The notes under the pieces are model-generated. The model worked only from the letters and a program-made list of their open reading frames with translations, made no database searches and had not been told where the DNA came from. From an uncultured Candidatus Saccharibacteria bacterium (GTDB lineage Bacteria > Patescibacteriota > UBA1384 > DTJR01): DNA of 64,000 bases. Shown here piece after piece: positions 4,933-47,330 of the stretch. Position numbers and translations under genes: made by a program. Location of the stretch: assembly GCA_964487045.1 (NCBI GenBank), contig CAZAOT010000003.1, positions 72,983-136,982 of the forward strand, written 5' to 3'. Every line of letters begins with the position of its first letter. Positions within the stretch are counted from its first letter, which is position 1.

Positions 4933-6298
4933 TGTTCTCCTTTGATTCGCCCGAAAATTCGATCGATTCAGAATTCTTGGGGATATCTATTTCAATATTC
5001 ATCGTTTCTTTAATTTTGGCCATTAAAGCCTCTTTAGCTTCAGGCTCGCCGTGAACTAGAACGATTTTCTTAACATTTTTAATCTGCGAGACCCACTCGA
5101 CAAGTTTTGGTTGGTCAGCATGCGCGGAGTATGATTGTATCGGGATGATTTTTGCTTTGGAGAAAATTTCACTGCCTCTTATTTTAACTTCCTTATCTCC
5201 GTCAAGCAATCTTCGCCCAAGAGTGCCTTTTACCTGATAACCGACGATCAAAAGCGTTGTATTTTCCTTTGGCAAAAATGCTTTTTCGTGCCATTGAATT
5301 CTACCGCCATTCGACATTCCTGAGCCAGCAATGATGATTTTGGTCGATTCGTCCTTATCTAACTTCATTGAATCTTCGCTTTCTTCAATCATCTTTAGAC
5401 CTTTAAACTCGAAGAAGTCGTCGCCTGATTTTAAAAGGGCCGTAGCTTCGGCATTATAATACTGAGGATATTTAGCGTAAACTTCAGTCGCCTTAATCGC
5501 CAGCGGACTATCAAGATAAACAGGTATAAATGGAATGCTTCCGCCTTCAACTAGGCCGTTTAGTTCATATAGGATCTCTTGAGTTCTTTCCATTGCAAAT
5601 GATGGCATTAGAATAGTTCCATTTTCGCTAATCGAGTCTTTGATAATCTTCGTGAGCTGCTCTTTACGTTTTTCCATCGGTTCATGTTCTCGATCGCCAT
5701 AGGTCGATTCCATAATTACTAAGTCTGCTGATTCAATAAATTCAGTTTTCTTAAGCAGGGGAACTGGAGGATTGCCGAGATCACCCGAAAAAATAATTGT
5801 TTTTCCTTCTGCCTGGATTTTGACAATTGCTGATCCAAGAATATGACCCGCATCATAAAATTCGACTTCCACGCCTTCAATAGGTGAGAATTTCTCGTGA
5901 TAATTTTTTTCTTCAATTAAGGCAACTGTTTTAGCGACATCATCTAGATCATATAATGGTTGTTTATTAACGTACTCGGCTTCATTTTCCATTAAGTGGC
6001 ATGAGTCTTCGAGGAAAATTTTGGCAAATTCTTGAGTTGGCCCAGTAGCATAAATTTTTCCGCCAAATCCCATTTTTACCAGGTGTGGTGTTCGACCAAT
6101 GTGGTCAATGTGAGAGTGGGTCATGATCATCGCACCGACGTCTGCTGGGTTATAGGGGAACTCCTGCCAGTTTAAGACTGTTTCATCGTCCCCACCTTGA
6201 AACAGACCGCAGTCGATAATCAGTTTGCCAGCGCTAGTTTCAAGTAGATAATTTGATCCTGTCACACCTTCGGTAGCTCCACAGAATGTAATTTTCAT
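4922..6298 (-). CDS. Metallo-beta-lactamase fold beta-CASP family hydrolase, likely RNA-metabolising (RNase J/CPSF-like)
   Basis: THSHIDHIG (HxHxDH) motif, beta-CASP-type C-terminal region, 458 aa. Confidence 0.6.
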   Translation of the reverse strand: MKITFCGATEGVTGSNYLLETSAGKLIIDCGLFQGGDDETVLNWQEFPYNPADVGAMIMTHSHIDHIGRTPHLVKMGFGGKIYATGPTQEFAKIFLEDSCHLMENEAEYVNKQPLYDLDDVAKTVALIEEKNYHEKFSPIEGVEVEFYDAGHILGSAIVKIQAEGKTIIFSGDLGNPPVPLLKKTEFIESADLVIMESTYGDREHEPMEKRKEQLTKIIKDSISENGTILMPSFAMERTQEILYELNGLVEGGSIPFIPVYLDSPLAIKATEVYAKYPQYYNAEATALLKSGDDFFEFKGLKMIEESEDSMKLDKDESTKIIIAGSGMSNGGRIQWHEKAFLPKENTTLLIVGYQVKGTLGRRLLDGDKEVKIRGSEIFSKAKIIPIQSYSAHADQPKLVEWVSQIKNVKKIVLVHGEPEAKEALMAKIKETMNIEIDIPKNSESIEFSGESKENNEV

Positions 6299-6990
6299 TC
6301 GTTGCTCCCTGCTTTATCTTTTTCTTCTTCCGTCTCAATCCCTATGATCTTGAGCGCCGAGCTTGTTCCAATTCGAGTGGCGCCTGCTTCAATCATACCC
6401 TTAGCCTCTTCGAATGTATGGATTCCGCCCGATGCTTTGACCTTTACCTCGTCCCCCACAGAAGCACGCATCGTCTTAATATCATCGATGGTCGATGGTC
6501 TTGGGCCGTAGCCAGTCGATGATTTCACAAATGCTGCTCCTGCTTTCTCGGCTCTCTTGCATGCTTCGGTTAGCTCTTCTTCTGTTAGAAAGCCAACTTC
6601 CATAATAACTTTGAGGCCAATTGGCTGAATCGCTGTTGCGATTTCCCTGATTTCTTCTTCGATAAAATCAAATTTCTTCTCTTTAATTGCTCCAATGTTA
6701 ACAACCATATCAATCTCGGTTGCGCCATCTTCTACAGCGAGCTTGGCTTCGGCTACTTTAATTTCGGTTTTTGAAATACCAAATGGAAAGCCAATTACAC
6801 TAATTACTTCAATATCGGCTCCTTCGAGATATTCTTTTGCGGCTGCTACGCGGTAGGTAGTGACGCAAACACTATGAAAACCATATTCCTTAGCTTCAGA
6901 GCAAAGCTTTTTGATGTCTTCATTTGTAGCATCTGCTTTGACACAAGTGTGGTCAATATAAGAAACGATATTTTCTTTTGTAATATTCAT
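6295..6990 (-). CDS. deoC: Deoxyribose-phosphate aldolase
   Basis: N-terminal YIDHT..KADAT and the KxSTGY region typical of DeoC; 231 aa. Confidence 0.8.
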   Translation of the reverse strand: MNITKENIVSYIDHTCVKADATNEDIKKLCSEAKEYGFHSVCVTTYRVAAAKEYLEGADIEVISVIGFPFGISKTEIKVAEAKLAVEDGATEIDMVVNIGAIKEKKFDFIEEEIREIATAIQPIGLKVIMEVGFLTEEELTEACKRAEKAGAAFVKSSTGYGPRPSTIDDIKTMRASVGDEVKVKASGGIHTFEEAKGMIEAGATRIGTSSALKIIGIETEEEKDKAGSNE

Positions 6991-7130
6991 TAAATCTCCT
7001 CAAGTTTAGGTCCTTCGATTCCTGCCCCTCTACCTGACGCACTGCAATAACAGGACGGAGTCAGTTTTGCAGTAAGGAATGGTGTGGGGTGGTCAATATA
7101 TTTTCTAATTGATTGTTGATCTAGTTCCAT
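6988..7130 (-). CDS. Orphan leader ORF of 46 aa: displaced deoC-like N-terminus (MELDQQSIRKYIDH) fused in frame to the repeat-encoded peptide PTPFLTAKLTPSCYCSASGRGAG...; its stop overlaps the deoC ATG (TAATG)
   Basis: Strong SD AAGGAGGG 3 nt before the ATG at 7130; frame read directly. Confidence 0.45.
7022..7089. repeat. Copy B (reverse orientation) of a ~68-bp structured repeat, about 89% identical to 13989..14056
   Basis: The reverse complement reads CCCCACACCATTCCTTACTGCAAAACTGACTCCGTCCTGTTATTGCAGTGCGTCAGGTAGAGGGGCAGG; flanked by the 12-bp direct repeat TATATTGACCAC at 7089-7100 and 6949-6960 (minus sense). Confidence 0.8.
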
Positions 7131-7245
7131 TTTCCCTCCTTATAACGATACAAATGCATTATAACATAATAACTTAAGTGTAAATGAAAAGAGAAAGGGC
7201 CGCCGTGTCGAATGACATGGCGGCCCTGGTTGTGCAGTGAGAGCT

Positions 7246-7968
7246 CTAGCTTGGTAGCTGAAGCGGAGTTAGATACTCAGCAGCTCTGGGAGTCGCCTTG
7301 ATGTCAGCTTTGTATCCATAGGTTCTCGCTGTCTCCAGATCCCAAGCGTAACTACCAGCGGGCTGAGTGGGCCTTGCGATGATTCGCGGGTCAAACCCTA
7401 TCTCATTTCCGGTCGTTGCCCAGTCGATATATGGGTTGATGTCAACTTCATACCGGAAAGGATCGGTCCGATCGCCGGCAGCAAGTGTAGCCAGCTCATC
7501 TAGACGATCGTCTGGCCAGTAAACCTTGCTTGTTGTCTGGCGGTTTTCGATCTCGACCCATTCATCGCCAACTGAGATGACTTCCGCTTCGTCGAAATGG
7601 ACAAATGCCTCTTGCGGAATCTCAATCTCCGGAAACATCAACTCCTCGGGACAGAGCTGTTCGAAGAAGGTCGTGCCAAGTAGCGTTATGCTGTCATCCC
7701 CACGTGGGATGACAAAGTAGGGCTGGTTTTCGTATGCGCCCCACTTCTGGCCAGGCCAGAGATAGCCAAGCGCCCAATCACCGTCTTTTTGCTGATAGAC
7801 GAGCCATGCCGCGCCGCTTCGAACTTCCCACGCTACTGAGCAAAAGTTGTGAAAAGCTGGTTCGGCTGGCCGCTCCGGTGATATCCTTAGCAGGAAAGAG
7901 CAGCACATGTCGGCTTTGTACATGAACGAGTCGATGATCCTTGGCCTAAACTGAAGCCGGTTTGGCAT
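7246..7968 (-). CDS. Hypothetical protein on GC-rich cassette c (ATG at 7968 after AAGGAGG-N5)
   Basis: GC-rich ORF; promoter-like TTGACT-N17-TACTAT upstream (minus) at ~8020-8050; hairpin AGGGCCGCC..GGCGGCCCT plus T-run downstream at ~7195-7240. Confidence 0.45.
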   Translation of the reverse strand: MPNRLQFRPRIIDSFMYKADMCCSFLLRISPERPAEPAFHNFCSVAWEVRSGAAWLVYQQKDGDWALGYLWPGQKWGAYENQPYFVIPRGDDSITLLGTTFFEQLCPEELMFPEIEIPQEAFVHFDEAEVISVGDEWVEIENRQTTSKVYWPDDRLDELATLAAGDRTDPFRYEVDINPYIDWATTGNEIGFDPRIIARPTQPAGSYAWDLETARTYGYKADIKATPRAAEYLTPLQLPS

Positions 7969-8059
7969 GTCTGCCTCCTTTTGTTCTTTCAAATGCTACA
8001 GGGTTGCATAAAGCTTGCCACTTTGCAGATAGTAAACGGGTCTTCTTATCTAGTCAAGA

Positions 8060-8581
8060 TTATTTATAAATATAGATCTTCGGAGAAGTATTCTTTTTTA
8101 ATGGTTTGCGCCCTGTGAAATTAAAGGTTAGGGACACAACGGAAGCATTTCGCTTTAAATTTTTAAAAATAATAGGTTCAATCTTAGCTAAGAGTTTTTC
8201 AAGTAGATAGACATAAATCAAATCAGCTTTGTTTATTAGGTTTTCGTATTTTAATATATTGCCGTAATAAATTTTAATATTTTTGGTTTGATGGTGAAGC
8301 GCAACATTTAATTTGGCGAGTATGAAATAGAAAGGGGAGATTTCGATGCCGATACCTTTTGCTCCAAACTCTTTGGCAGCAATAATCAAGCTTCGCGCAT
8401 TGCCACAGCCGAGATCGATGACCACTTGTCCAGATTTTAAGTAGGCCATCTCAAAAGCCTTTTTAATAATTTTTTCTTTAGCGTAAACCGTCGGTGCACC
8501 TGAAAAGGCGGAGATTAACAGAGAAATTTGCCAAATAAGTGCGATCAAAGCTAGAGTGATAAATAATATAGAAATAGTCAT
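8060..8581 (-). CDS. Class I SAM-dependent methyltransferase with an N-terminal TM helix
   Basis: Motif VIDLGCGNARSLIIAA (SAM-binding motif I); backbone composition. Confidence 0.55.
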   Translation of the reverse strand: MTISILFITLALIALIWQISLLISAFSGAPTVYAKEKIIKKAFEMAYLKSGQVVIDLGCGNARSLIIAAKEFGAKGIGIEISPFYFILAKLNVALHHQTKNIKIYYGNILKYENLINKADLIYVYLLEKLLAKIEPIIFKNLKRNASVVSLTFNFTGRKPLKKNTSPKIYIYK

Positions 8582-8678
8582 ATTTATCTAAGATTAACAT
8601 TTTGTTTCATAAATAAAAAAGAAAGCCCGGGCGCTCCACTGGGGAGGGCTCGGGCTTGATGAGGCGTGGTAGCGGGTG

Positions 8679-8939
8679 CTACCGGAGGTTTCGGCGCTGA
8701 TCCGCGGTGGGGTTCTTGCCCACGTTTGAGTTGCCGACCGTCCGCTTTCGCACGATCCAGTCGGCAAGGAGCACGAAGGCGCTGATCGTGGCAGTGATGG
8801 CAGTCATGTAGAGCGTCGGCTTGCTCTTAAACATGATGCCAAAAGCGATGAAAAGCGGGGTAGTGGGGAAGAGGAAGAATTTGAACAATCTCCTCTTTCC
8901 CTTGGTGAGAAAAGACTTCGGCTTGAGTGACTTCATCAT
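8679..8939 (-). CDS. Small 2-TM membrane protein on GC-rich cassette d1
   Basis: 86 aa, two hydrophobic segments; a terminator hairpin follows on the minus strand at ~8600-8640. Confidence 0.4.
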   Translation of the reverse strand: MMKSLKPKSFLTKGKRRLFKFFLFPTTPLFIAFGIMFKSKPTLYMTAITATISAFVLLADWIVRKRTVGNSNVGKNPTADQRRNLR

Positions 8940-8953
8940 AGTCCTCCCTGTTT

Positions 8954-9523
8954 CTAGCCCTTGCAGTCAGGGCATACGATCGTGATTTGGTTTCCTACGC
9001 CGGACCCTGTGTCCGGAATGAAGGGATCTCCACAGCGGAAGCAGTATCTGGGTTCACCTGCAACCAGCTTCTTGTCTGCATCCGAGCAGACCTTGCACTT
9101 GCGGGGATTCCAGAGGTTGCGTCTGCTTGGGGTATAAGCACCGCAATGTGGGCAGTAGAAGTGTGTCATTAGGCGTTGCCCAGTGCTCTTGGCGACAGGC
9201 GGGATCCAGCGCTTGATCGTGAAGCGCTGCTCCAAACCAGGGTGCAACTCTACCGTAGCGCCGTGGCCGCTGGTAGCTCGGACAGCAAAGCCGTTTTCCA
9301 GAAAGAGGTTCGCTATCTGCGCGAGTTCGCCCAGAGGTTCCTGGTTGAGGGCAGTTGCCAACTCAACATAGCATAGTTCTTCTGGAATGCTAGCGGCAGG
9401 CTGGTTGATTTCGACAGCGATACGAGCTTGCTGCTCCTCGGGTAGATTTGCCAATAAGGCAGTAATCCGCCCCTTGAGCGCGTCTGCTTCTTGGCTTGTA
9501 CTGGTGACTCGGGCGCGGATCAT
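8954..9523 (-). CDS. Zinc-ribbon protein with four CxxC pairs (CPHC..CKVC..CFRC..CPDC), GC-rich cassette d1
   Basis: Cys motifs read from the translation; a perfect TTGACA-N17-TATAAT promoter sits upstream (minus) at ~9555-9585. Confidence 0.45.
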   Translation of the reverse strand: MIRARVTSTSQEADALKGRITALLANLPEEQQARIAVEINQPAASIPEELCYVELATALNQEPLGELAQIANLFLENGFAVRATSGHGATVELHPGLEQRFTIKRWIPPVAKSTGQRLMTHFYCPHCGAYTPSRRNLWNPRKCKVCSDADKKLVAGEPRYCFRCGDPFIPDTGSGVGNQITIVCPDCKG

Positions 9524-9611
9524 GGTTGCTCCCTATCCTTTTTGGTATGTAAAGGTTCGAACGAACGTTTGATTATATTTGAATTACGTCCGAATGTCAA
9601 TAATTAAGTAC

Positions 9612-9633
9612 AAGGGACGCCGGAGGGGCGTCC
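9612..9633 (-). terminator. Hairpin AGGGACGCC-GGAG-GGCGTCCCT just downstream of the 9638 stop (minus), followed by T-rich sequence
   Basis: Perfect 9-bp stem. Confidence 0.45.
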
Positions 9634-9637
9634 CTGA

Positions 9638-9919
9638 TCAGAGCCAGCAGTCGTGGCGAGTGATGATATTTCCGTCATCGCCAATACTGCCAACTTTGCA
9701 TGTTCTTCCGAGACGGCGAAAGCCTCTCATTGCAGGAGCAAATGCGGCTGCACCTAACAATATATAGAAGCTGGTACCAGATATGCCCGAGATGGTAGCG
9801 AAAAGCCAGAACATCTTGGGGTAGCAGATCGCTACAGTCGTTGAAGTGTACGCAACCCCTTTGAGAAGGGGAGCGAGAACGATCGGTCGTGAAACTAATG
9901 ACAGAATTCGACTGATCAT
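9638..9919 (-). CDS. Small hydrophobic protein on GC-rich cassette d2
   Basis: ORF with RBS GGAAGGAG and promoter-like TTGAAA-N17-TAATTT upstream; its own terminator. Confidence 0.35.
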   Translation of the reverse strand: MISRILSLVSRPIVLAPLLKGVAYTSTTVAICYPKMFWLFATISGISGTSFYILLGAAAFAPAMRGFRRLGRTCKVGSIGDDGNIITRHDCWL

Positions 9920-10023
9920 GCGCTTCTCCTTCCGAGGGATATGGTTAAATTATCCTAAAACAAGTTTGTTTTCAACCTGATAGATTGATTTTTTGTCTCA
10001 TTTGGGCTATAATAATAAGTGCC

Positions 10024-10041
10024 TGCCTGCCGGTAGGCAGG
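10024..10041. promoter_or_regulatory. 18-mer TGCCTGCCGGTAGGCAGG (16-bp palindrome, 6-bp arms) at the +1 region of the tRNA-Lys promoter (TTGATT-N17-TATAAT at ~9990-10018)
   Basis: The identical 18-mer occurs inverted at 12387-12404. Confidence 0.5.
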
Positions 10042-10074
10042 GCTTTCCGCCTGTTCTTTTCTGTTATAAAGTTT

Positions 10075-10149
10075 GGGCCTGTAGCTCAGTGGTAGAGCAG
10101 TTGCCTTTTAAGCAACGTGTCGTGGGTTCGATACCCACCAGGCCCTCCA
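10075..10149 (+). tRNA. tRNA-Lys (anticodon UUU at 10107-10109), CCA encoded
   Basis: Cloverleaf folded by hand: acceptor GGGCCUG/CAGGCCC, D-arm GCUC/GAGC, anticodon stem GUUGC/GCAAC with loop CUUUUAA, T-arm GUGGG-UUCGAUA-CCCAC. Confidence 0.85.
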
Positions 10150-10161
10150 ATGAAAAAAAAT

Positions 10162-10188
10162 ATCCACCCGTGCGGTGGATGTTTTTGT
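10162..10188 (+). terminator. Intrinsic terminator after the tRNA (ATCCACC-CGTG-CGGTGGAT followed by GTTTTTGTT)
   Basis: Hairpin plus T-run. Confidence 0.6.
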
Positions 10189-10341
10189 TATTTGGAGTCA
10201 CTTAAGAGCGCGAAAGGCGTAGGCCGAGCTAAGGTCGAGAAAAAAAATCAGCAAAAATTGTCCAACATCTTGATTTTTTGAAAAATAAGTGAATAATGTA
10301 TTATTAATTTGGAATACGTACATTGAAAGAGGTAGGTAGCG

Positions 10342-10761
10342 ATGAGTAAGCGCATCCTGGTGGTTGATGATGAGCGCCACATCGTCCGTCTGGTTAAGCT
10401 CAACCTGGAACGCGCCGGCGGCTATGACGTCCTGACAGCGTACGACGGGATCGAGGCTCTGGGCAAAGTCAAGACCGAGAGCCCCGATATGGTGGTGCTC
10501 GACATCATGATGCCCCGGATGGACGGTTACGAAGTACTGCGTAACTTGCAAGCAGATCCCAGCTGCCAGAACATACCCGTGATCATGCTGACCGGCAAGG
10601 ACCAGGACGCCGACTTCTTCAAGGCCTGGGCCAGTGGGTTGAGGGCATATATGACAAAGCCCTTTGATCCCCAAGAATTGCTGACATTCATCCAACGGAT
10701 CTTCGAGGCCGATCAAATCGGGTATGGGGATGATACAGATGATTCGTGCTTTGAAGTGTAA
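10342..10761 (+). CDS. Stand-alone response-regulator receiver (CheY-like) domain protein, GC-rich cassette e
   Basis: VVDDE...D...DIMMP..DG...LTGK receiver signature; 139 aa; no output domain; no kinase in the window. Confidence 0.7.
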   Translation: MSKRILVVDDERHIVRLVKLNLERAGGYDVLTAYDGIEALGKVKTESPDMVVLDIMMPRMDGYEVLRNLQADPSCQNIPVIMLTGKDQDADFFKAWASGLRAYMTKPFDPQELLTFIQRIFEADQIGYGDDTDDSCFEV

Positions 10762-10787
10762 TGTAGCTTGCCCCTCTCGATTCCCAT

Positions 10788-10826
10788 GCCCGCATCTGCT
10801 CCGGAGGCTTTGCGGGCATTCTTTTT
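10788..10826 (+). terminator. Intrinsic terminator GCCCGCA..TGCGGGC followed by ATTCTTTTTCT
   Basis: Hairpin plus T-run directly after the receiver gene. Confidence 0.6.
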
Positions 10827-11003
10827 CTAAATAGTTAACACCCATTTTATAAAGTCCAAACACAAATTTTTCAAAATTAGTTCAATCTGAGCCACAGGTG
10901 AAATTTCGCGTTCCACCCGCGAAATCCCCAGAAATAAAATTGCCCCGTTAGGGGCTATTTTAATTATTTAGAGATGTTTCCAGTCGTGTGATATATTAGT
11001 CCT

Positions 11004-11453
11004 ATGGTCAAATCTCATCCAAAAGTAGGTGTTGGCATTATCGTCATCAAGAAAGAAAATGGCAAAGATTTTGTAATGCTCCATCAGCGCAAAGGAAGAA
11101 ATGGGCTAGGCAAGGACTATTGGGGCAGTGGTGGAGGACACCTGGAATTGGGTGAATCGCTGGAGGCCGGTGCGCTTCGGGAGCTCAAAGAGGAAGCAGG
11201 AGGCAAACTGAAGGTAAAAAATGTGAGATTCTTAGGTGTGATTAACTTTACCGAAATGAATCCAAAACACTATGTCGATGTCAGTTTTGTAGCCGATTGG
11301 GTGTCCGGGGAACCAATTAACAATGCTCCCGAGGAAACAACCGACTGGAAGTGGTTTGCGCTGGATGAGCTACCAAGCCCGCTCTTTCCGCCAGTAGAGC
11401 ATTATCTGGAAGCGCTCGAGACAGGGCAAAGTTTTTTTGATTCGTCGTTTTAG
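11004..11453 (+). CDS. NUDIX hydrolase
   Basis: Nudix box GGGHLELGESLEAGALRELKEEAG. Confidence 0.7.
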   Translation: MVKSHPKVGVGIIVIKKENGKDFVMLHQRKGRNGLGKDYWGSGGGHLELGESLEAGALRELKEEAGGKLKVKNVRFLGVINFTEMNPKHYVDVSFVADWVSGEPINNAPEETTDWKWFALDELPSPLFPPVEHYLEALETGQSFFDSSF

Positions 11454-11466
11454 TTAAAGGTGCAAC

Positions 11467-12216
11467 ATGAAAATGCTTGAGTCAATTACAATCCGTCTAC
11501 CTCGAAAAGATCGAGATTTTGAGAATAAATTTCTTAACTTTTTGGGTCAATTTGGAATAAAAAAGGGCGATAAAATCACTTTTCAGCGTTCCAGTGATAA
11601 ATATCTTCCAAGAACTGCCTTTGAATTTAGCGATTGCCAGACTGCTGAAGCGATATTTTGTAGTTCGACAGAGCATAAGGTTAAGATTGCCAATACTACC
11701 GGTCAGGAGAAAAAGAGCCCTCTTGCATATACTCCAATCAAGCTAGGAGAATTTTTAGAACGCGTGAAGAATCTGAATTTTGAATTTGTGGATCATATTG
11801 GTTTTGACATTTTTTGGCCTAGGGGTGCTCATCCGGCAATTCAACAAGCCAGAGAGGTTTTATCCAAGGAGTGTTTGTATTATCTTTATCCAACAGGAGA
11901 AGACTGGGATTTTATTATTCCCGCCACTCCAGAAGAGATTGTTTCAAAAGCGTTAGATTACAAAGCCATTCGCAGGCCAAAATTCGAAATAGTCTCGCTC
12001 GACTATACTTCAACCCCGATTATCCAATTTGATATATCGGTTAAAGAAAATTTTGATCAAATTAAAGGTTTATTTCCTGAAGGTTATCCGGATAATTATT
12101 TGAAAAATGTTTGGGTTTATATAGAGAACCCCTACGAATTATTTATTTGTGTGGTAATTGGTCATCGCAACAAAGGCGACTGGTACCGATTTCTTAAAAA
12201 AGGACTAATCAAGTAG
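11467..12216 (+). CDS. Hypothetical protein
   Basis: 249-aa ORF, backbone composition, no recognisable motif. Confidence 0.4.
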   Translation: MKMLESITIRLPRKDRDFENKFLNFLGQFGIKKGDKITFQRSSDKYLPRTAFEFSDCQTAEAIFCSSTEHKVKIANTTGQEKKSPLAYTPIKLGEFLERVKNLNFEFVDHIGFDIFWPRGAHPAIQQAREVLSKECLYYLYPTGEDWDFIIPATPEEIVSKALDYKAIRRPKFEIVSLDYTSTPIIQFDISVKENFDQIKGLFPEGYPDNYLKNVWVYIENPYELFICVVIGHRNKGDWYRFLKKGLIK

Positions 12217-12386
12217 GACGACTCTGTTTTAAAAGTGAAGATTACGGAACTTTTTTTATAATAATTAGGATTGACTTTTTTGTAATAAACACAAGAATTG
12301 GGATATCATTAAGTTATTAGTAATAATAAAATATCCCAGTCACATTTCACCCTCTCGCAATATTCTTAATCTAAGAAATTTGCGAA

Positions 12387-12404
12387 CCTGCCTACCGGCA
12401 GGCA
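12387..12404. promoter_or_regulatory. Inverted copy of the 18-mer (CCTGCCTACCGGCAGGCA) upstream of the 12478 gene
   Basis: Reverse complement identical to 10024-10041. Confidence 0.5.
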
Positions 12405-12477
12405 AGTAGGGATCAAAGTGACGGGACTTCCGGAATTGCTTCCTGCCTTGGAGCGCAATTCTCGGAGCGGAGGAAAT

Positions 12478-12975
12478 ATGGCAAAGCCAACTAAATACGC
12501 AACTCTAATCTGTTTTGTGCTCATGATAGTCGCTGCGATATGCGCCTATATTGGTTATCGCAATCAATCAGCGATTGTTATTGTCCTAGGTCTATTGCCA
12601 ACGGTTATTTATGAAGTCTATCGAACAGAAGGCGAATCAACCCGTGCTTCAAGTTGGCTGATGTTGTTTGTGCTGGTAGCCGAAGCAATCTTAATTTTGT
12701 TTAAGATCAATTTTGATCTCGGGCAATATCTTGGACAATCTGATGCAATAATTGGTGGATCAGTAGTGCCACTTGGCGATATAAAGATTTTGGCTCCAGC
12801 AATTATGGCTCTACTCTCAGTAATTTTATTTACCCGAACAGCCGGAATATATACAAAGTGGTTATCGGTGATAATTTTTGCAGTATCTTTCGTGCTTATT
12901 TATGTTATTTCTCCCGAAGGGTTTTCGGGACTTATAAAATCTGCCATTAATCAGGTTATTTATTGGGGATTCTAA
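12478..12975 (+). CDS. Polytopic membrane protein (likely start MAKPTKY)
   Basis: Hydrophobic helices; the upstream 60 nt of the track ORF is GC-rich leader. Confidence 0.45.
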   Translation: MAKPTKYATLICFVLMIVAAICAYIGYRNQSAIVIVLGLLPTVIYEVYRTEGESTRASSWLMLFVLVAEAILILFKINFDLGQYLGQSDAIIGGSVVPLGDIKILAPAIMALLSVILFTRTAGIYTKWLSVIIFAVSFVLIYVISPEGFSGLIKSAINQVIYWGF

Positions 12976-13773
12976 TTATCTTACAGCGAAATAGTAACCC
13001 TTGTAGGAAAAATAATTGCCTCGAGGGCTTTGGGCCGGCTTGGATAGGTCTAGTTTTCCGTAAATTTTAAATTTATTGGCAATGGCAAAATGATATTCGG
13101 TAAGTGAATCAACCGCTGAACCATTTTCAATGAAAGTTCCTCCAGTTAGGCCGAATAAAAACAATGCTTTGATTCCACTCTCAATGCAGATGTTGTCAGT
13201 GCTGATAAATTTATAGTCTTCGTCTAATAACATTTTATAAGTCTTTGAGTCAGTCTTTTGCGGGCCAAGTTTGCCGGGTCTGTCCCAGTAGGTAATTAAT
13301 TTTGTTGCATCTTCAACCTGCATTTTTATTTCTGGAGATTTTCCGAGATACTCAATTTTATCTTCAACAATTTTTATTCCATATTTGATCGCCGGATAAT
13401 AACAGAAAGTGTAAATAGGTTTTTTCTTGTCGTGGATAGTGACAACGACTGAAAACATTTTCTTTCCTTCGGCATACAACTTAGTTCCATCTATTGGGTC
13501 TAGAGTCAAAACATATTTAGACGTTTTTGCAAATAAATGGGCGCTTGGAGTTTCTTCCTCGCCAATAAGCTCACACTCCTTTAGATCGCTTTGAATTAGG
13601 CGACTGAGAATGAACTCCTGCACCGCAAGATCGGCGGAGGTAACTATATCAACTTCGCTAAAACCGGTATTATGTTTCTGATTGGAAGTAAAACTGCTAC
13701 GCATCTTTAATGCTAATTCTCCTGCCTTGATAAAGTCTTGTTCAAATTTTTGAACTTCTTCTATTATATTCAT
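12976..13773 (-). CDS. Inositol monophosphatase / FIG-family phosphatase
   Basis: DPIDGT motif and upstream TSADLAVQ metal-binding region. Confidence 0.6.
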   Translation of the reverse strand: MNIIEEVQKFEQDFIKAGELALKMRSSFTSNQKHNTGFSEVDIVTSADLAVQEFILSRLIQSDLKECELIGEEETPSAHLFAKTSKYVLTLDPIDGTKLYAEGKKMFSVVVTIHDKKKPIYTFCYYPAIKYGIKIVEDKIEYLGKSPEIKMQVEDATKLITYWDRPGKLGPQKTDSKTYKMLLDEDYKFISTDNICIESGIKALFLFGLTGGTFIENGSAVDSLTEYHFAIANKFKIYGKLDLSKPAQSPRGNYFSYKGYYFAVR

Positions 13774-13816
13774 AAGCCAATCATATCTAATCTAGATTGA
13801 GAGTAAAGATTGAAGA

Positions 13817-13845
13817 TTGACTAATCGGCGAAAATAGTGTATATT
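13817..13845 (+). promoter_or_regulatory. Sigma70-like promoter TTGACT-N17-TATATT driving the orphan leader ORF / typA
   Basis: Hexamers and 17-bp spacing read directly. Confidence 0.45.
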
Positions 13846-13953
13846 CTATTGGTTGTAAACAGCCAAAGAAGGCTTTTTGATCTATTTCGCATAGCGAAGA
13901 GATCAACCCTTCCATAGCTCTTTGAGCGAAGGAGGGTATTCTTTTTAAAAATT

Positions 13954-14070
13954 ATGATTCGAAACGTTGCGATTATTGCTCATGTAGACCCCACACCGCT
14001 CCTTACTGCAAAACGGATTCCATCCTGTTATTGCAGTGCGTCAGGTCGAGGGGCGAGAGATGACAAATAA
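13954..14070 (+). CDS. Orphan leader ORF of 38 aa: displaced typA-like N-terminus (MIRNVAIIAHVD) fused in frame to the repeat-encoded peptide PTPLLTAKRIPSCYCSASGRGARDDK
   Basis: SD AAGGAGGG upstream; codons differ from the real typA N-terminus only at synonymous positions (6 of 6 differences). Confidence 0.45.
   Translation: MIRNVAIIAHVDPTPLLTAKRIPSCYCSASGRGARDDK
13989..14056. repeat. Copy A of the ~68-bp structured repeat: CCCCACACCGCTCCTTACTGCAAAACGGATTCCATCCTGTTATTGCAGTGCGTCAGGTCGAGGGGCGAG
   Basis: Flanked by the 13-bp direct repeat GCTCATGTAGACC at 13978-13990 and 14118-14130. Confidence 0.8.
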
Positions 14071-14081
14071 AATTTTGCCAA

Positions 14082-15902
14082 ATGGATATGAATAAAATTA
14101 GAAATGTAGCTATCATAGCTCATGTAGACCACGGAAAGACCACGCTTGTCGATGGTCTATTAAAGCAGTCCCATACTTTTCGTGACAACCAAGCCGAGAT
14201 GAATCAGACGCTCATTATGGACTCAAACGATCAGGAGAGAGAGCGCGGAATTACAATTTTGGCTAAAAATACCGCAGTAAATTACAAAGATACTAAAATT
14301 AATATTATTGATACTCCTGGCCACGCCGATTTCGGTGGGGAGGTGGAGCGAACGCTCAATATGGCAGATGGCGCGATCCTTGTAGTTGATGCTCAAGAAG
14401 GACCAATGCCTCAAACAAAGTTTGTTTTGAAAAAAGCGCTTGATTTAGGGCTAAAGATTATTGTAGTAATAAACAAAATTGATAAGAAAAATGCGCAAGT
14501 TGAAAGTGTTATAGAAAGAACTTCAGATCTATTTCTTGATTTAGCTTCTGATGAGTCACAGCTCGAATTTCCAATTTTGTTTTCAATTGCCAAGCAAGGT
14601 AAGGCTTGGAGCGAAATGCCACAGAATTTTGAAGAAGACGGTGATCTTTCGAAAATTTTTGAAGCAATTTTGCAGTATATTCCTGCGCCAAAAGTCGAAG
14701 AGGGTCCATTTCAGATGCTTGTATCGGCCTTGGATTGGGATAGCTATCAGGGAAAATACGCAATCGGAAAAATTTCAAGAGGAAAAGCGATGGCTGGTCT
14801 TCAGGTGAGTTTGGTAAATGAAGATGGCGTAAAAGAAAATACTCGAATTGATAAGATTTTTGTTAGCAGCGGTTTGGTCAAACAAGAAGTTAAGGAAGCC
14901 GTGTGTGGCGACATTGTTTCAATTACCGGAATTAAGAACGCTGGAATTGGCGAAACAATCGCTGATCAGACGAGTCCCGAGGCTCTGCCGGGCATAAGTA
15001 TAGAAGAGCCGACCCTTTCGATGGCAATTTCAGCCAATACTTCGCCATTTGCTGGCAAGGAAGGTAAGTTTGTTACTGGCCGACAAATTTTAGACAGAAT
15101 TAAAAAAGAACTAGAGACAAACGTTTCGCTAAAATTTAAACAGGGCGAGGAAGGCGAATATATTCTCTCTGGCCGAGGCGAACTTCACTTGTCCGTCTTT
15201 ATTGAAACTCTTCGTAGAGAAGGTTTTGAGCTTCAAGTTGGTAAGCCACAGGTTATTATCAAAGAGATTGATGGCATTAAGAGCGAACCACTTGAAGAAT
15301 TAACGGTTGATGTCGAAGATCAGTATGTAAATAACGTGATCGCCGAGGTTATAAGACGAAAAGGTGTTTTGCATCATCAGAACCCACTTCTTGATGGCAC
15401 GACCAGGCTTATTTTTGAAATTACAACGCGTGGAATGCTCGGTCTTAGAAGCCAACTAATGACTCTTTCGCGCGGAACAGCTGTCGCTAACTCGATATTT
15501 TTAAGATTTGAAAAAGTTATGAGCGAAATTCCAAGACTTCGAAACGGAGTTTTGATCGCTTCTGAAGATGGCAAGGCTGTAACTTATGGGCTTGATATAG
15601 CTCAGGGCCGAGGAATCACATTTATCGAGCCACAACAGCAAGTCTATAAAGGTATGATTATCGGGCTTAATTCAAAAGAGTCTGATATCGAAATCAATGT
15701 AGCCAAAGAGAAGCATTTGACCAATATTCGAGCTGCTTCTTCTGATATGACCACGGTTTTGACCCCAGCAACAATTTTGTCACTTGAACAATGTATTGAC
15801 TTTTTGGAAGATGACGAGCTTCTTGAGGTTACTCCAACGTCACTTCGACTTCGAAAGAAGATACTCGATCCAACGCAGCGAAATAGAGCTAGAATTCGCT
15901 AA
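14082..15902 (+). CDS. typA: Translational GTPase TypA/BipA (the true start may be ATG 14088, MNKIRNV...)
   Basis: AIIAHVDHGKTTLVD G1 motif, DTPGHADF, NKID; 606 aa. Confidence 0.85.
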   Translation: MDMNKIRNVAIIAHVDHGKTTLVDGLLKQSHTFRDNQAEMNQTLIMDSNDQERERGITILAKNTAVNYKDTKINIIDTPGHADFGGEVERTLNMADGAILVVDAQEGPMPQTKFVLKKALDLGLKIIVVINKIDKKNAQVESVIERTSDLFLDLASDESQLEFPILFSIAKQGKAWSEMPQNFEEDGDLSKIFEAILQYIPAPKVEEGPFQMLVSALDWDSYQGKYAIGKISRGKAMAGLQVSLVNEDGVKENTRIDKIFVSSGLVKQEVKEAVCGDIVSITGIKNAGIGETIADQTSPEALPGISIEEPTLSMAISANTSPFAGKEGKFVTGRQILDRIKKELETNVSLKFKQGEEGEYILSGRGELHLSVFIETLRREGFELQVGKPQVIIKEIDGIKSEPLEELTVDVEDQYVNNVIAEVIRRKGVLHHQNPLLDGTTRLIFEITTRGMLGLRSQLMTLSRGTAVANSIFLRFEKVMSEIPRLRNGVLIASEDGKAVTYGLDIAQGRGITFIEPQQQVYKGMIIGLNSKESDIEINVAKEKHLTNIRAASSDMTTVLTPATILSLEQCIDFLEDDELLEVTPTSLRLRKKILDPTQRNRARIR

Positions 15903-20209: not shown

Positions 20210-20390
20210 TACTATCTTAAAAATTTTTATTTATTATTTTCAATTTTTAATTGATTGGCCCATTTAGCTATTGAAATATTTAAAATAAGTCAATAACTCA
20301 ATCAATAACAAATATAAAATATTAAATCTTAAATAAAGAGAAGCGCATGATGTGCTTCTCTTCTTCCCGAAGTTGTTATCGTTCTAACAT

Positions 20391-20419
20391 TGACTTGTCT
20401 GCTGATTTTGTCTAATATC
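20391..20419 (+). promoter_or_regulatory. Consensus-like promoter TTGACT-N17-TAATAT for GC-rich cassette g
   Basis: Read directly. Confidence 0.45.
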
Positions 20420-20476
20420 TGCTTATCGGAGGCTTTGATCCTTCGGTATTTCTTCAAATCGGCAGGAGGGAGCGTC

Positions 20477-20851
20477 ATGCCGAGGGATTCGATTCTCTAC
20501 GAAAAAGCCAGGGCGAGGTGGGAGTATGCTTCACATCTTCCATCTCGCAGTACAGTCAGGCAGTATTCGCTCAAGTGTTTCGCATTAGTATACCCGGTCG
20601 AAGTTTTGCGGGAATACTGGCGTGTAGACGCGTTGTCGCGCCAGAGTCTAATGGTATCGTCTCACAGCTTTGCCCCTTCTCCCGCTGAACTTGCAGCCAT
20701 GGCAGAAGGGCGTGACCGTAATGAACGGCGCGCAAATCAAGCCAGGGCGAGACTCGAAAGGATGGCGACGGAGCACGGGGTGGACCTAGATGCGATGGCT
20801 GATGATATCGCATTCGTTTGGCACAACTGGAGTCTGCTTGAGCTCGAGTAG
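20477..20851 (+). CDS. Hypothetical protein on GC-rich cassette g (start MPRDS after GGAGGG)
   Basis: GC-rich ORF; terminator AAGGCGA..TCGCCTT plus T-run at 20868-20900. Confidence 0.4.
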   Translation: MPRDSILYEKARARWEYASHLPSRSTVRQYSLKCFALVYPVEVLREYWRVDALSRQSLMVSSHSFAPSPAELAAMAEGRDRNERRANQARARLERMATEHGVDLDAMADDIAFVWHNWSLLELE

Positions 20852-33425: not shown

Positions 33426-34139
33426 ATGTCGGGACATTCTAAATGGGCTTCAATCAAACACCAAAAGGCAGCCACTGATAAAAAACGAAGCAATGTTTTT
33501 ACAAAACTTGCCAATAACATTTCGGTTGCCGCCAGGGGTGGTGGCGATCCAGCAATGAACTATTCATTAAGGTTAGCTATCGAGAAGGCCAAAGGGGCTA
33601 ATATGCCCAAGGACAATATCGAGAGGGCAATCAAGAGAGGTACCGGTGAACTCGGTGGGGCTTCTATCAGTGAAGACTTATTTGAAATTTATGGCCCAGC
33701 GCAAACAGCAATCTTGGTTGAAACAATTACTGATAATAAAAATAGAACTTCGGCCGAAATAAAAGCAGTCATCAATAAAATGGGTGGTAAGCTAGCTAGT
33801 GCAAATGCAGTCTCATATATGTTTGATCGAAAGGGTGAAATAAAAGTAAGCATTGATGGTCAAGGTGAGGAAGATTTAGAGCTAAAAATTATTGAATCAG
33901 GCGCTGAAGATTATCAGCTCATCGATGACGGGTATTTGATCTATTGCAAACCAAACGAACTCAAGCAGGTTGCGGATATTCTGCTTGATCAAGGACTAAA
34001 AGTTGAATCATCAGAGTTGGTTTGGTTACCCAAAGAAACTATTTCTGTTCCAGAAGAAGATTCGGCTAAAGTAATTAGGTTGCTTGAGGCACTGGATGAT
34101 CTCGACGATGTTGCAAATGTAAGCTCGAATTTAGGTTAA
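33426..34139 (+). CDS. yebC: YebC/PmpR-family transcriptional regulator
   Basis: MSGHSKWASIKH N-terminus; promoter TTGCGA-N17-TATAAT at ~33363-33391. Confidence 0.8.
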   Translation: MSGHSKWASIKHQKAATDKKRSNVFTKLANNISVAARGGGDPAMNYSLRLAIEKAKGANMPKDNIERAIKRGTGELGGASISEDLFEIYGPAQTAILVETITDNKNRTSAEIKAVINKMGGKLASANAVSYMFDRKGEIKVSIDGQGEEDLELKIIESGAEDYQLIDDGYLIYCKPNELKQVADILLDQGLKVESSELVWLPKETISVPEEDSAKVIRLLEALDDLDDVANVSSNLG

Positions 34140-46406: not shown

Positions 46407-47330
46407 ATGGCAAAAATTTTAGTTACCGGTGGAGCTGGCTTTATTGGTTCGAACTTTTCCAATCTAATGAGTCAAAAAGGGCATGAAGTTGTTGCTTTTG
46501 ATAACCTTTCTCTTGGAAAAAAGGACAATCTTTCCGAAAAAGTAAAATTTGTTGAAGGTGACGTTAATAAAGAAGAAGATCTGCTTAGTGCTGGAGAAGA
46601 TTTTGATTATATTATTCATTTAGCTGCTTCCTCCTCTGCTCCAATGTTCGCCGAAAATATGTACTGGGCTTATCAGAATAATGTTTCGGGTCATGTCAGG
46701 GTCATGCAATATGCGAAAAAAATTGGTGTTAAGAAAATGTTGTTTGCCTCTACTTCTTCAATTTACGGCAACAATCCGACACCACTTACCGAAGACCAAG
46801 AAGTGATTCCTCCGAACCATTATTCGGTGACAAAGTTTGCTCAAGAAGGTGCTTCCCGTGTTTTTTCTAAAGCGGAGGGCTTAGAGATAATTGCTTTCAG
46901 ATTTATGTCGATTTACGGGTTAAACGAAGGTCACAAAACATATTTCGCTAATCTAGTTTCGCAATTTATTTGGTCAATGGCTAAAGACGAAGAGCCGGTT
47001 CTGTATGGTGATGGTACGCAGGAGAGGGATTTTACTAACGTAAAAGACGTTTGCCAGGGTATTGAAAAGGCGATGGAAACAGAAAAAAAATACGGATTTA
47101 CAATCTTCAATATCGGTACGCACAAGGCGATTAATCTATTGGAATTAGTTGAAATGATCAATAAGGCGCTTGGCAAAAATATTAAGCCGAAACTTATCCC
47201 GAATCCAGTTAAGGAAGGTTATGTGAAAAGCCAACTTGCCAGTATTGATAAGATATCAAGTGAACTTGGGTATGAACCGACGGTAGAACTCGAGGACGGA
47301 ATTAAAGAAATTGTTGATAACCTAAAGTAA
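46407..47330 (+). CDS. NAD-dependent nucleotide-sugar epimerase/dehydratase (GalE-like)
   Basis: ILVTGGAGFIGSN; YxxxK region. Confidence 0.7.
   Translation: MAKILVTGGAGFIGSNFSNLMSQKGHEVVAFDNLSLGKKDNLSEKVKFVEGDVNKEEDLLSAGEDFDYIIHLAASSSAPMFAENMYWAYQNNVSGHVRVMQYAKKIGVKKMLFASTSSIYGNNPTPLTEDQEVIPPNHYSVTKFAQEGASRVFSKAEGLEIIAFRFMSIYGLNEGHKTYFANLVSQFIWSMAKDEEPVLYGDGTQERDFTNVKDVCQGIEKAMETEKKYGFTIFNIGTHKAINLLELVEMINKALGKNIKPKLIPNPVKEGYVKSQLASIDKISSELGYEPTVELEDGIKEIVDNLK

Follow-up and report, generated by a model that had tools for sequence, protein, structure and literature searches.

A repeated hairpin between displaced and duplicated gene starts at typA and deoC: a candidate end-replacement cassette in Patescibacteria

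In a 64,000-nt stretch of DNA from an uncultured Candidatus Saccharibacteria bacterium (contig CAZAOT010000003.1, positions 72,983 to 136,982 of the forward strand; hereafter "the window", by which we mean this whole stretch), the genes typA and deoC are each preceded by a copy of a hairpin element of about 67-70 nt, which we call E. At both genes a displaced gene start, which we call the orphan, lies against the 5' edge of E, on whose 3' side the intact gene begins with a second, diverged version of the same start. E is a copy type of a repeated, Watson-Crick-paired hairpin of about 70 nt that is widespread in Patescibacteria. We think, with a probability of roughly 0.55, that E at typA and deoC is the core of a 140-bp non-autonomous, homing-like end-replacement cassette that is built on a hairpin repeat resembling REP (repetitive extragenic palindromic) sequences.

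Layout at typA and deoC

The first-pass annotation of the window had reported two related copies of E in inverted orientation at typA and deoC, and direct reading together with alignment confirms them; its E sites are right to within 1-2 nt. Over 71 aligned columns the two copies share 87% identity, and the features of the two loci, with scores from a covariance model (R1) that is described below, are as follows.

13817-13845, + strand: sigma-70-like promoter TTGACT-17-TATATT, upstream of the typA orphan
13954-14070, + strand: typA orphan open reading frame (ORF), consisting of the start and 12 codons MIRNVAIIAHVD (13954-13989) and then running through E, with stop TAA at 14068-14070
13990-14056, + strand: E, typA copy (model R1 70.7 bits, expect value 7e-21; fold z -3.0)
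13978-13990 and 14118-14130, + strand: typA direct repeat GCTCATGTAGACC, copies 140 nt apart
14057-14129, + strand: typA spacer and replacement start, with the start codon at 14082 or 14088 and codons NKIRNVAIIAHVD, a second, synonymously recoded gene start
14082-15902, + strand: intact typA (translational GTPase TypA/BipA), protein beginning M(DM)NKIRNVAIIAHVDHGKTT
6990-7130, - strand: deoC orphan ORF of 46 aa, with ATG at 7130 and 14 codons MELDQQSIRKYIDH (7130-7089), then running through E
7022-7089, - strand: E, deoC copy (model R1 71.8 bits, expect value 3e-21; fold z -2.1)
7089-7100 (upstream copy) and 6949-6960 (downstream copy), - strand: deoC direct repeat TATATTGACCAC, copies 140 nt apart
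6949-7021, - strand: deoC spacer and replacement start, with Shine-Dalgarno sequence GAGGAG, ATG at 6990 and codons MNITKENIVSYIDH
6295-6990, - strand: intact deoC (deoxyribose-phosphate aldolase)

Upstream of both E copies, AAGGAGGG is followed by an ATG, and for the typA orphan it lies 17 nt ahead of the ATG at 13954. The stop of the typA orphan is separated by 11 nt from the earliest codon at which typA could start, and the deoC orphan stop overlaps the deoC start in the sequence TAATG (6992-6988, - strand). The spacer between E and the real start is not conserved between the two loci, and ATGAAT lies 99 nt past the start of E at both. Thus, the earlier description of direct repeats 140 nt apart and of an ATGAAT at the same offset is correct for typA and deoC, as is the statement that the insert contains no recombinase gene. 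Between the orphan codons and the real codons of typA there are 6 differences, all of them synonymous, as had also been claimed, so the two starts are diverged copies and not a fresh duplicate.

Each half-pattern of E was found at these two window sites only (a 19-mer is expected 0 times in shuffles), and the covariance model run over the 64-kb window likewise recovers two E copies only. A weak match to the model at 20438-20490 (15 bits, expect value ~0.08), within an ORF at 20390-20848, is probably due to chance. Both copies are more stable than their own shuffles when folded as RNA (z -3.0 and -2.1 for typA and deoC) and when folded as DNA (z -3.5 and -2.1). The worry had been raised that the region might be an assembly chimera, and we reject this because the NCBI contig and two independent Logan assemblies, each made from a different sequencing run, all have the same deoC layout.

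In the middle of the interval between deoC and typA (10075-10186), the window contains a tRNA-Lys(ttt) gene followed by a 13-bp hairpin that resembles a bidirectional terminator.

The hairpin, its family and its genomic surroundings

The typA copy of E folds into an outer helix P1 (CCCCACACC / GGUCGAGGGG), an internal loop (GCUCCUU / GCGUCA), a helix P2 (ACUGCAAAAC / GUUAUUGCAGU) with a bulged A, and a terminal hairpin P3 (GGAU-UCC-AUCC). Across the family, P1 has 7-9 bp and is highly variable in sequence (CCCCACACC/GGUGAGGGG, CCCCGCA/UGCGGGG, CCAAGU/ACUUGG and others), while the asymmetric internal loop inside P1 is conserved, with (A)AYUCCUU on its 5' side and (A)GCGUCAU on its 3' side. P2 has 10 bp with a bulged A and is followed by one unpaired U and then by P3, which has 4 bp and a UAC or UCC triloop. 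In a model-based alignment of 94 copies, 19 of the 21 pairs vary on both sides, in agreement with our hand alignment, and 90.9% of cells are paired; the corresponding figure is 77% for shuffles and does not exceed 45% when the partners are shifted against one another. In diverged copies compensatory changes are also found in P2. The first-pass annotation had argued for a conserved structure from the inner hairpins of the two window copies (GGAU/AUCC versus UGAC/GUCC); one of the two differences there is indeed a compensatory pair, U-A to C-G, but the other is a mismatch, U.C. The general claim of covariation is strongly borne out by the wider family, and the covariance model that had been proposed from all copies, once built, supports the hairpin.

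Among about 1300 cells of helix 2 there are only 1-2 G-U pairs, yet 12 of its 14 pairs covary. Pairing that is restricted to Watson-Crick pairs is typical of DNA palindromes such as REPs, the ends of IS200/IS605 insertion sequences and attC sites, and it is unusual in RNA. The scarcity of G-U hints that E acts at the level of DNA, probably as a single-stranded hairpin, or that it functions on both strands, with the caveat that the seed and the model may themselves disfavour G-U pairs.

Copies of E outside the window were found in several collections. An exact 18-mer scan with one genome per species gave 3 true loci, 2 of them in one unclassified metagenome-assembled genome (MAG) and 1 in a Candidatus Berkelbacteria MAG; most of the 18-mer matches in the genome collection were rejected as chance, an example being a conserved Sphingomonas locus. 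A looser two-block pattern matched at least 120 stretches of metagenome contigs, mostly from groundwater or sediment samples, and at least 83 distinct metagenome copies were left after filtering. With 56 of 83 distinct copies as its seed, model R1 finds 94 copies of E at expect values below 1e-6 within 450 kb, including diverged copies that were beyond the reach of the pattern used for selection. The two window copies are each nearer to one metagenome copy, that of L068 (L numbers denote loci), at 94% and 91.5% identity than they are to one another, and by the homologues of its TypA and DeoC the source organism belongs to the Patescibacteria, near Berkelbacteria. E is a repeated, structured family and not just a pair of sequences in the window, and the expectation of the first-pass annotation that further copies would lie behind codon ~12 of other genes, between flanking repeats, holds for about 20 loci.

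The family has no counterpart in the collections that we searched. Rfam 15 gave no match at the gathering score in the window, L009, L024 or L025, and a search of Rfam at expect values of up to 10, made with E and with a longer form of it that is described below, gave noise only. A phage record collection and viral contigs contained chance matches only, and we found no description of E in the open-access literature, which was searched by topic and by core sequence.

The immediate neighbours of E are housekeeping genes, and E has a strong preference for one side of them: of the genes found within 250 nt on its 3' side, 38 have co-oriented starts and 11 are opposed, with a cluster at 36-54 nt from the core. 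E also lies directly after tRNA genes, and in at least 13 loci the CCA of the tRNA is the start of P1. Copies in head-to-tail arrays have a period of 70 nt (L043, L118, L094), and clusters reach 3-4 copies per kb; convergent or divergent pairs are found at L119, L113, L038, L074, L078 and L135. In a Candidatus Berkelbacteria genome (PEZV01000007, L025 2140-2360), E lies amid DnaA boxes (TTATCCACA) in the region between rpmH and dnaA, which is presumably oriC, and L067, L097 and L125 contain this region too.

Several of these surroundings have features of their own. In a tRNA-linked subfamily (L029, L031, L033, L039, L043, L049, L064, L065, L086, L119, L127, L140), P1 is CCAAGU/ACUUGG and opens with the CCA of the tRNA, and the first 10-17 nt of the 69-nt unit recur after it (CCAAGTAAAAT; CCAC[A/G]AAAAATTCCTTC), often followed in turn by the loop region in inverted form (GGAAGTAATTTTAC) or by a diverged, oppositely oriented E. 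L033, L032 and L106 have in common a cluster of tRNA-Trp, tRNA-Thr(ggt), tRNA-Tyr and tRNA-Thr(tgt), in which E lies downstream of tRNA-Thr(ggt); the E copies of L033 and of L032/L106 are in opposite orientations and belong to different subfamilies, implying independent insertions at one locus. At L040 (reverse strand), E lies about 190 nt upstream of the 16S rRNA 5' end, and at L009 a 16S 3' end (1-330) is followed by a 432-aa ORF and then by an E of the long form.

This long form is found in leaders at L009 2455-2710, L129, L063 5000-5160, L054, L056, L034 and L024 6650-6810. In it, AAGGAGGG on the 5' side can pair with CUUCCU directly after E, and next comes a hairpin that holds a miniature version of the E loop and stem junction (UUUCUGC-UUUC-GCAGAAGCG), followed by UCAGGAGCGGAGG and AUG. 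A GGAGG Shine-Dalgarno sequence precedes the AUG, and the downstream genes are diverse (S20, GAPDH, membrane proteins). The long form at L009 closes with a terminator-like hairpin and a U-run.

REPs and the palindrome-associated elements derived from IS200/IS605 are mobilized by Y1 HUH transposases (RAYT/TnpA). No Y1_Tnp/RAYT was among the top 25 Pfam families listed for 126 neighbours and 68 window ORFs (whole genomes were not searched), and no endonuclease was found when the 10 ORFs that extend from deoC to the neighbour of typA were scanned with Pfam, or among the top 25 families listed for the 68 window ORFs. The most frequent Pfam family, at 6 of the 126 neighbours, consists of small GIY-YIG ORFs of 80-100 aa, mostly next to tRNA-linked copies (L033, L113, L119, L127, L133). 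These are possible mobilizing or homing nucleases, or they may be merely selfish genes associated with tRNAs. The window itself encodes a ComEC-type competence gene and RuvC.

Displaced ends, empty sites and expression

The order of a displaced gene end, E, a spacer and an intact gene is found at about 20 loci besides typA and deoC. We compared the 60 nt to the left of E with the stretch 20-220 nt to its right, using cross-locus controls, and in 13 of 75 loci the similarity of the two flanks is above the 99th percentile of the cross-locus null; in most of these 13 the left copy stops at the first base of P1. A protein-level test with the same cut-off recognizes orphans in 7 of the 33 loci that have a co-oriented gene start within 200 nt, with deoC (L001) just under the cut-off, and cases in which the orphan is shorter or lies at a contig end were recognized by eye. 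The targets are listed here, with a slash for the junction.

L036: LepA (MTQENIRNFCIVSHID/), spacing 140
L048, L090, L128, L135: TsaD (ETSCD/ or ETSCDE-T/)
L053, L068, L116: NAD-dependent epimerases (VTGG... region)
L117: YebC
L144: PHP-type protein
L110, opposite strand: RNase J C-terminus (3' end)
L114: tRNA-Val 5' part
L032, L106, opposite strand: tRNA-Thr 3' part
L057, opposite strand: tRNA-Leu 3' part

Without exception, the fragment that has been displaced lies against the 5' edge of E, with the intact gene past E's 3' side. Because the same layout is found at tRNA ends and at the 3' end of a gene on the opposite strand, translation cannot have caused the duplication. Away from typA and deoC the repeats are spaced by 106-152 nt and the exact repeats are 1-15 nt long, so the 12-13-bp repeat and the 140-bp unit that the first-pass annotation had described are not general rules. 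L117 has tandem units in the order E-S-H-E-S-gene. The junctions themselves show a weak bias, with an NA/CC context, GA/ in about 8 of 18 as we read them, and 0-4 nt of microhomology.

The insertion sites are the G1 motif of a GTPase (AHVD/HGK in typA), ETSCDET of TsaD, the GxGxxG of Rossmann folds, IDH/T of DeoC, GHSKW of YebC, and the D- and T-loops of tRNAs. Of the motifs close to the respective gene ends these are the most conserved ones, as is well established for their families, and introns, inteins and homing endonucleases are known to favour conserved motifs. At L135 (387-574), the TsaD orphan lies between two divergent E copies (387-458, - strand; 505-574, + strand), both of which face it with their 5' ends. 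At L104 (reverse strand, ~20-240), the duplicated target resembles a tRNA 3' end (TGG, acceptor and T-arm), but ARAGORN predicts none there; the target could be a tRNA that contains an intron or is unusual in some other way.

That E is an inserted unit, as had been proposed, is confirmed by the closest relatives, in which the same genes are continuous, including relatives whose proteins are 88-90% identical. In the relatives L148 and L149 typA is uninterrupted and free of E, and in the closest relatives for deoC, L152 (88%) and L150 (82%), deoC is uninterrupted and free of E as well. The closest TypA proteins (78-90% identity) begin with MIRNVAIIAHVDHGKTT, which is the orphan sequence joined straight to the remainder of the protein. 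The reverse situation is found in the window, where yebC (33426-34136) and an epimerase gene (46407-47327) are uninterrupted and the same sites carry E in L117 and in L053, L068 and L116, respectively. The further proposal that the unit supplies a replacement gene start is upheld as well.

The duplicated ends derive from diverged functional alleles that evolved apart under selection. Over 101 aligned codons at 10 loci, the orphan and real copies differ by 52 synonymous and 9 non-synonymous changes, including a serine that is AGC in one copy and TCT in the other at L117, and the non-synonymous differences sit where natural orthologues vary. A compensatory pair in the T stem distinguishes the orphan tRNA-Thr fragment from the real one, and the two types of DeoC N-terminus (ITKENIVSY..., LDQQSIRKY...) are both present among related DeoC proteins. 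The longest exact repeat at any locus is 15 nt. Taken together, the 52:9 ratio, the T-stem compensation, the two DeoC types and the shortness of the repeats exclude a fresh duplication followed by drift.

At typA the orphan looks native: the closest TypA relatives have exactly its N-terminus, and 33 of its 36 nt are identical to L148 as compared with 28 of 33 for the real copy. At deoC it is the real start that looks like that of the closest relatives, and the orphan is similar to more distant ones. Third-codon positions of the window and its relatives are near saturation, and sliding identity could not delimit a foreign tract.

Next to typA, the single promoter-like site lies upstream of the orphan, and none was found between E and either real start, so the transcripts should span the orphan, E and the gene. 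Two of the three frames of E are free of stops, and each of the 11-12 coding orphans is read through E in one of them. Of 11 orphans that retain a start codon, 10 end between -14 and +8 nt from the real start, with five ATGA overlaps and one TAATG, and in no case does the frame agree with that of the real gene. At L117 the ATG of the orphan has been lost (now ATA), and this orphan is uncoupled. Several spacers, including that of typA here and that of L090, have no Shine-Dalgarno sequence. These positions suggest that the orphan and the real gene may be coupled by termination and reinitiation. A leader or attenuator-like device had been offered as an alternative in the first-pass annotation, and the part of it that stands is the placing of orphan stops at the real starts, which points to termination-reinitiation. 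The idea of a conserved peptide encoded by the element has to be given up: orphans enter E in two frames (PTPLLTAKR..., PHHSLLQNG...), so that the supposed peptide merely mirrors the conservation of the nucleotides, tRNA cases exist, and a protein search with the orphan peptide returned the query itself only, with no peptide family.

Explanations and comparison with known systems

In the reading that we favour, the end-replacement cassette sits at a highly conserved motif a few codons into the gene, with the 5' edge of E against the displaced native start, which is the orphan; on its 3' side it brings a spacer with a start codon, together with the lost codons in a second version that stems from a diverged functional allele. 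The native promoter would transcribe through the orphan and E, and the native ribosome-binding site would load ribosomes that translate the orphan ORF, melt the hairpin, terminate at or near the real start and reinitiate there. Cassettes may spread between lineages as DNA, these bacteria carrying competence genes, and may integrate by recombination or break repair, in which case the orphan and the gene body would serve as the left and right homology arms, respectively. Such a homing-like process could be set off by a nuclease acting in trans or by an enzyme of the HUH type that recognizes E or the conserved target, and repeated invasion would yield tandem units such as those of L117.

A number of results weigh against this explanation. 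The evidence as to which copy is the resident one is conflicting, in that typA favours the orphan and deoC favours the real start, and no young insertion with identical repeats was seen among the loci examined. The founding insertion, in which the 5' end of E is precise and the 3' flank variable, is left unexplained by the model. No mobilizing enzyme was found near E in the Pfam scan of 126 neighbours, apart from the weak GIY-YIG signal. About two-thirds of the gene-proximal E copies have no recognizable orphan, E is preferentially placed 16-35 nt upstream of start codons in the sense orientation, as would fit a regulatory RNA, and the long-form leaders with their helices that involve Shine-Dalgarno-related sequences also fit a regulatory RNA of the host. 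Finally, the translational coupling that would keep the gene expressed is read from sequence features.

A cis-regulatory leader RNA of the host, of a riboswitch or protein-binding type, would account for some of these results, with the orphans as leader peptides or upstream ORFs that open the structure and with their likeness to the gene start as a by-product. It would explain the covariation-supported structure with its conserved internal loop (UCCUU / GCGUC), the sense bias just upstream of starts (38 versus 11), the pairing of AAGGAGGG with CUUCCU in the long form ahead of a hairpin, GGAGG and AUG, and the overlap of orphan stops with real starts. However, we consider a leader RNA unlikely because E has no Rfam match, its downstream genes are functionally mixed, and it also lies after tRNAs, at oriC among DnaA boxes and antisense between genes, with tandem and inverted clusters of 3-4 copies per kb. 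Helix 2 has almost no G-U pairs despite abundant covariation, the orphan layout is found at tRNA ends and at an opposite-strand gene 3' end where translation can play no part, and close relatives do without E. What is at work could instead be a miniature site-specific integrative element, with a circle of ~115-150 nt, probably single-stranded and comprising E (as the folded arm bound by the recombinase), the spacer and the gene-end copy, that is integrated by a recombinase acting in trans (tyrosine/Xer/integron-like or HUH), with the identical block at the junction as its crossover core. The flanks resemble attL and attR, with a block of identity that adjoins E in the orphan and the gene body in the real copy, and divergence to its left, in typA, deoC, L117, L068, L114 and L032; ends of genes and tRNAs are targeted, including T-loop and D-loop positions of the kind that integrases classically use; E has a precise 5' boundary at all loci; and the Watson-Crick-only hairpin with its conserved bulged A is like the single-stranded DNA substrates attC, CTX attP and IS200/IS605. 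Even so, we would not expect this to be the explanation, because the junction identity shrinks to just 1-5 nt in L036, L090, L116 and L128, the targets are very diverse with no common core, the neighbour scan found no recombinase gene enriched near E, and neither a circle junction nor a high-identity pair of empty and filled sites was seen.

Two other readings are harder still to reconcile with the data. If E had moved by a transposition like that of MITEs (miniature inverted-repeat transposable elements) or REPs, with a long and variable target-site duplication whose gene-start copies then drifted, this would fit the direct repeats that bracket E and its spacer, the head-to-tail copies at a 70-nt period and the inverted pairs like those of REPs and bacterial interspersed mosaic elements (BIMEs). 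But the duplicates are never identical, with a longest exact repeat of 15 nt, the 52:9 ratio is incompatible with neutral decay of the orphans, the deoC copies differ in protein sequence in the way natural DeoC variants do, the tRNA orphan has compensatory stem changes, and there are no conserved terminal inverted repeats, since P1 varies and covaries; we therefore regard it as very improbable. The two inverted E copies lie 6.9 kb apart and bracket a segment of uneven GC content, which the first-pass annotation had described as a 7-kb island rich in foreign-composition cassettes; it had offered recombination sites as an alternative, and such sites could invert or capture this deoC-typA segment. 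Almost nothing favours this beyond the inverted placing and the uneven GC: each orphan matches its own adjacent gene, a NUDIX gene of the interval keeps its place and orientation relative to typA (L148, L149) and to deoC (L150) in relatives free of E, a Pfam scan found no invertase or integrase domain in the interval, and the GC mosaic covers the whole first 24 kb. Nothing indicates inversion, and the island is not borne out. Over window positions 1-24000 the GC content in 600-nt windows ranges from 0.34 to 0.59, which is not confined to the interval between the E copies.

We also rejected several candidates. Programmed bypass of the T4 gene 60 or byp type would fit the matching repeats of the window, but there is no stop after the "take-off" site and the gap has a start codon of its own; moreover, repeats elsewhere are non-identical and tRNA genes share the layout. 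Mutagenesis by a diversity-generating retroelement was rejected because the differences are not adenine-specific, and a group I/II intron remnant, an integron attC site, a CRISPR repeat, and fragments of signal recognition particle RNA, tmRNA or RNase P were considered and rejected.

It is possible, though we put it forward tentatively, that the E-cassettes are a new class of enzyme-poor "homing alleles" of naturally competent bacteria of the candidate phyla radiation (CPR), each made of a ~70-nt hairpin, a spacer and a spare terminus, which would invade the best-conserved motifs at the termini of essential genes and tRNAs and in which the orphan would become the next homology arm and termination-reinitiation would maintain expression. 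The combination of an enzyme-free insert of ~110-150 bp with conserved motifs of both gene ends and of tRNAs appears to be undescribed, although its single ingredients have precedents, and there is a substantial chance that the mechanism may prove new. If true, it would add to splicing (introns, inteins) and ribosome bypass a third means by which selfish DNA can reside within conserved genes, and no repeat or mobile-element family would have been defined before E for Patescibacteria, a vast and little-understood radiation of ultra-small bacteria. It would also account for some of the puzzling short "ORFs" and mis-called starts before housekeeping genes in these genomes. The covariance model offers a practical means of following recombination and gene flow from one CPR lineage to another, and the strict Watson-Crick covariation with a conserved internal loop predicts a dedicated protein that binds or cleaves E.

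Among known systems, E shares structure and sense bias with riboswitches, but its gene set is incoherent and it has copies at tRNAs and oriC, in antisense and in clusters. Like the Rickettsia palindromic elements (RPEs) and intragenic MITEs such as Correia and ERIC (enterobacterial repetitive intergenic consensus), it is a small palindrome that is tolerated in or by genes and co-transcribed with them. RPEs are translated in frame within the protein, whereas E breaks the frame, restarts it and duplicates the gene end. Unlike MITEs, E has no conserved terminal inverted repeats and no target-site duplication of fixed length.

The REP/BIME (REPIN) sequences and the palindrome-associated transposable elements (PATEs) derived from IS200/IS605 are likewise short, imperfect, Watson-Crick-only hairpins with extrahelical bases and high copy number, and E has in common with REP/BIMEs its tandem and inverted doublets, its intergenic and tRNA-proximal sites and its likely transcription. 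We know of no homeologous gene-end duplications at REPs, whereas about one-quarter of E copies are flanked by them; E is also longer (~70 nt, with the outer covarying P1) and is preferentially placed just upstream of start codons. REPs tagged with GTAG or CGTC have been described (PMC3733652). E has no GTAG, and the conserved, single-stranded GCGUC after the 3' strand of P2 contains CGTC and may correspond to such a tag. In contrast to PATEs of the IS200/IS605 type, there is no fixed tetra- or pentanucleotide at the junctions of E, and many copies have flanking duplications.

The intron-less homing cassettes of T-even phages (seg/mob; mobA with the 50-nt bypass of gene 60) are similar in that a small insert occupies a conserved motif of an essential gene, the diverged flanks fit co-conversion, and a translational trick saves the gene; GIY-YIG ORFs are also found near some E copies. 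The E cassette differs in that it contains no endonuclease, has no stop at a "take-off" site, is also found in tRNA genes, and would rescue its target by a duplicate end and reinitiation rather than by bypass.

Lastly, the comparison with e14 at the icd 3' end that the first-pass annotation had drawn is apt, as 3' ends are also targeted by E (RNase J in L110; tRNAs in L032, L106 and L057). The integrative elements of gene ends (e14 and phage 21 at the icd 3' end; islands at tRNA and tmRNA 3' ends) insert near a terminus, restore the gene with a diverged terminus that they bring along, and leave the displaced native fragment as an orphan, and their T-loop and 3'-end sites in tRNAs are used by E as well. 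Compared with these elements, the E insert is only ~106-152 bp long, has no integrase ORF and is essentially one conserved hairpin, its identity core is short and variable (1-13 nt), and it targets many genes at both their 5' and 3' ends.

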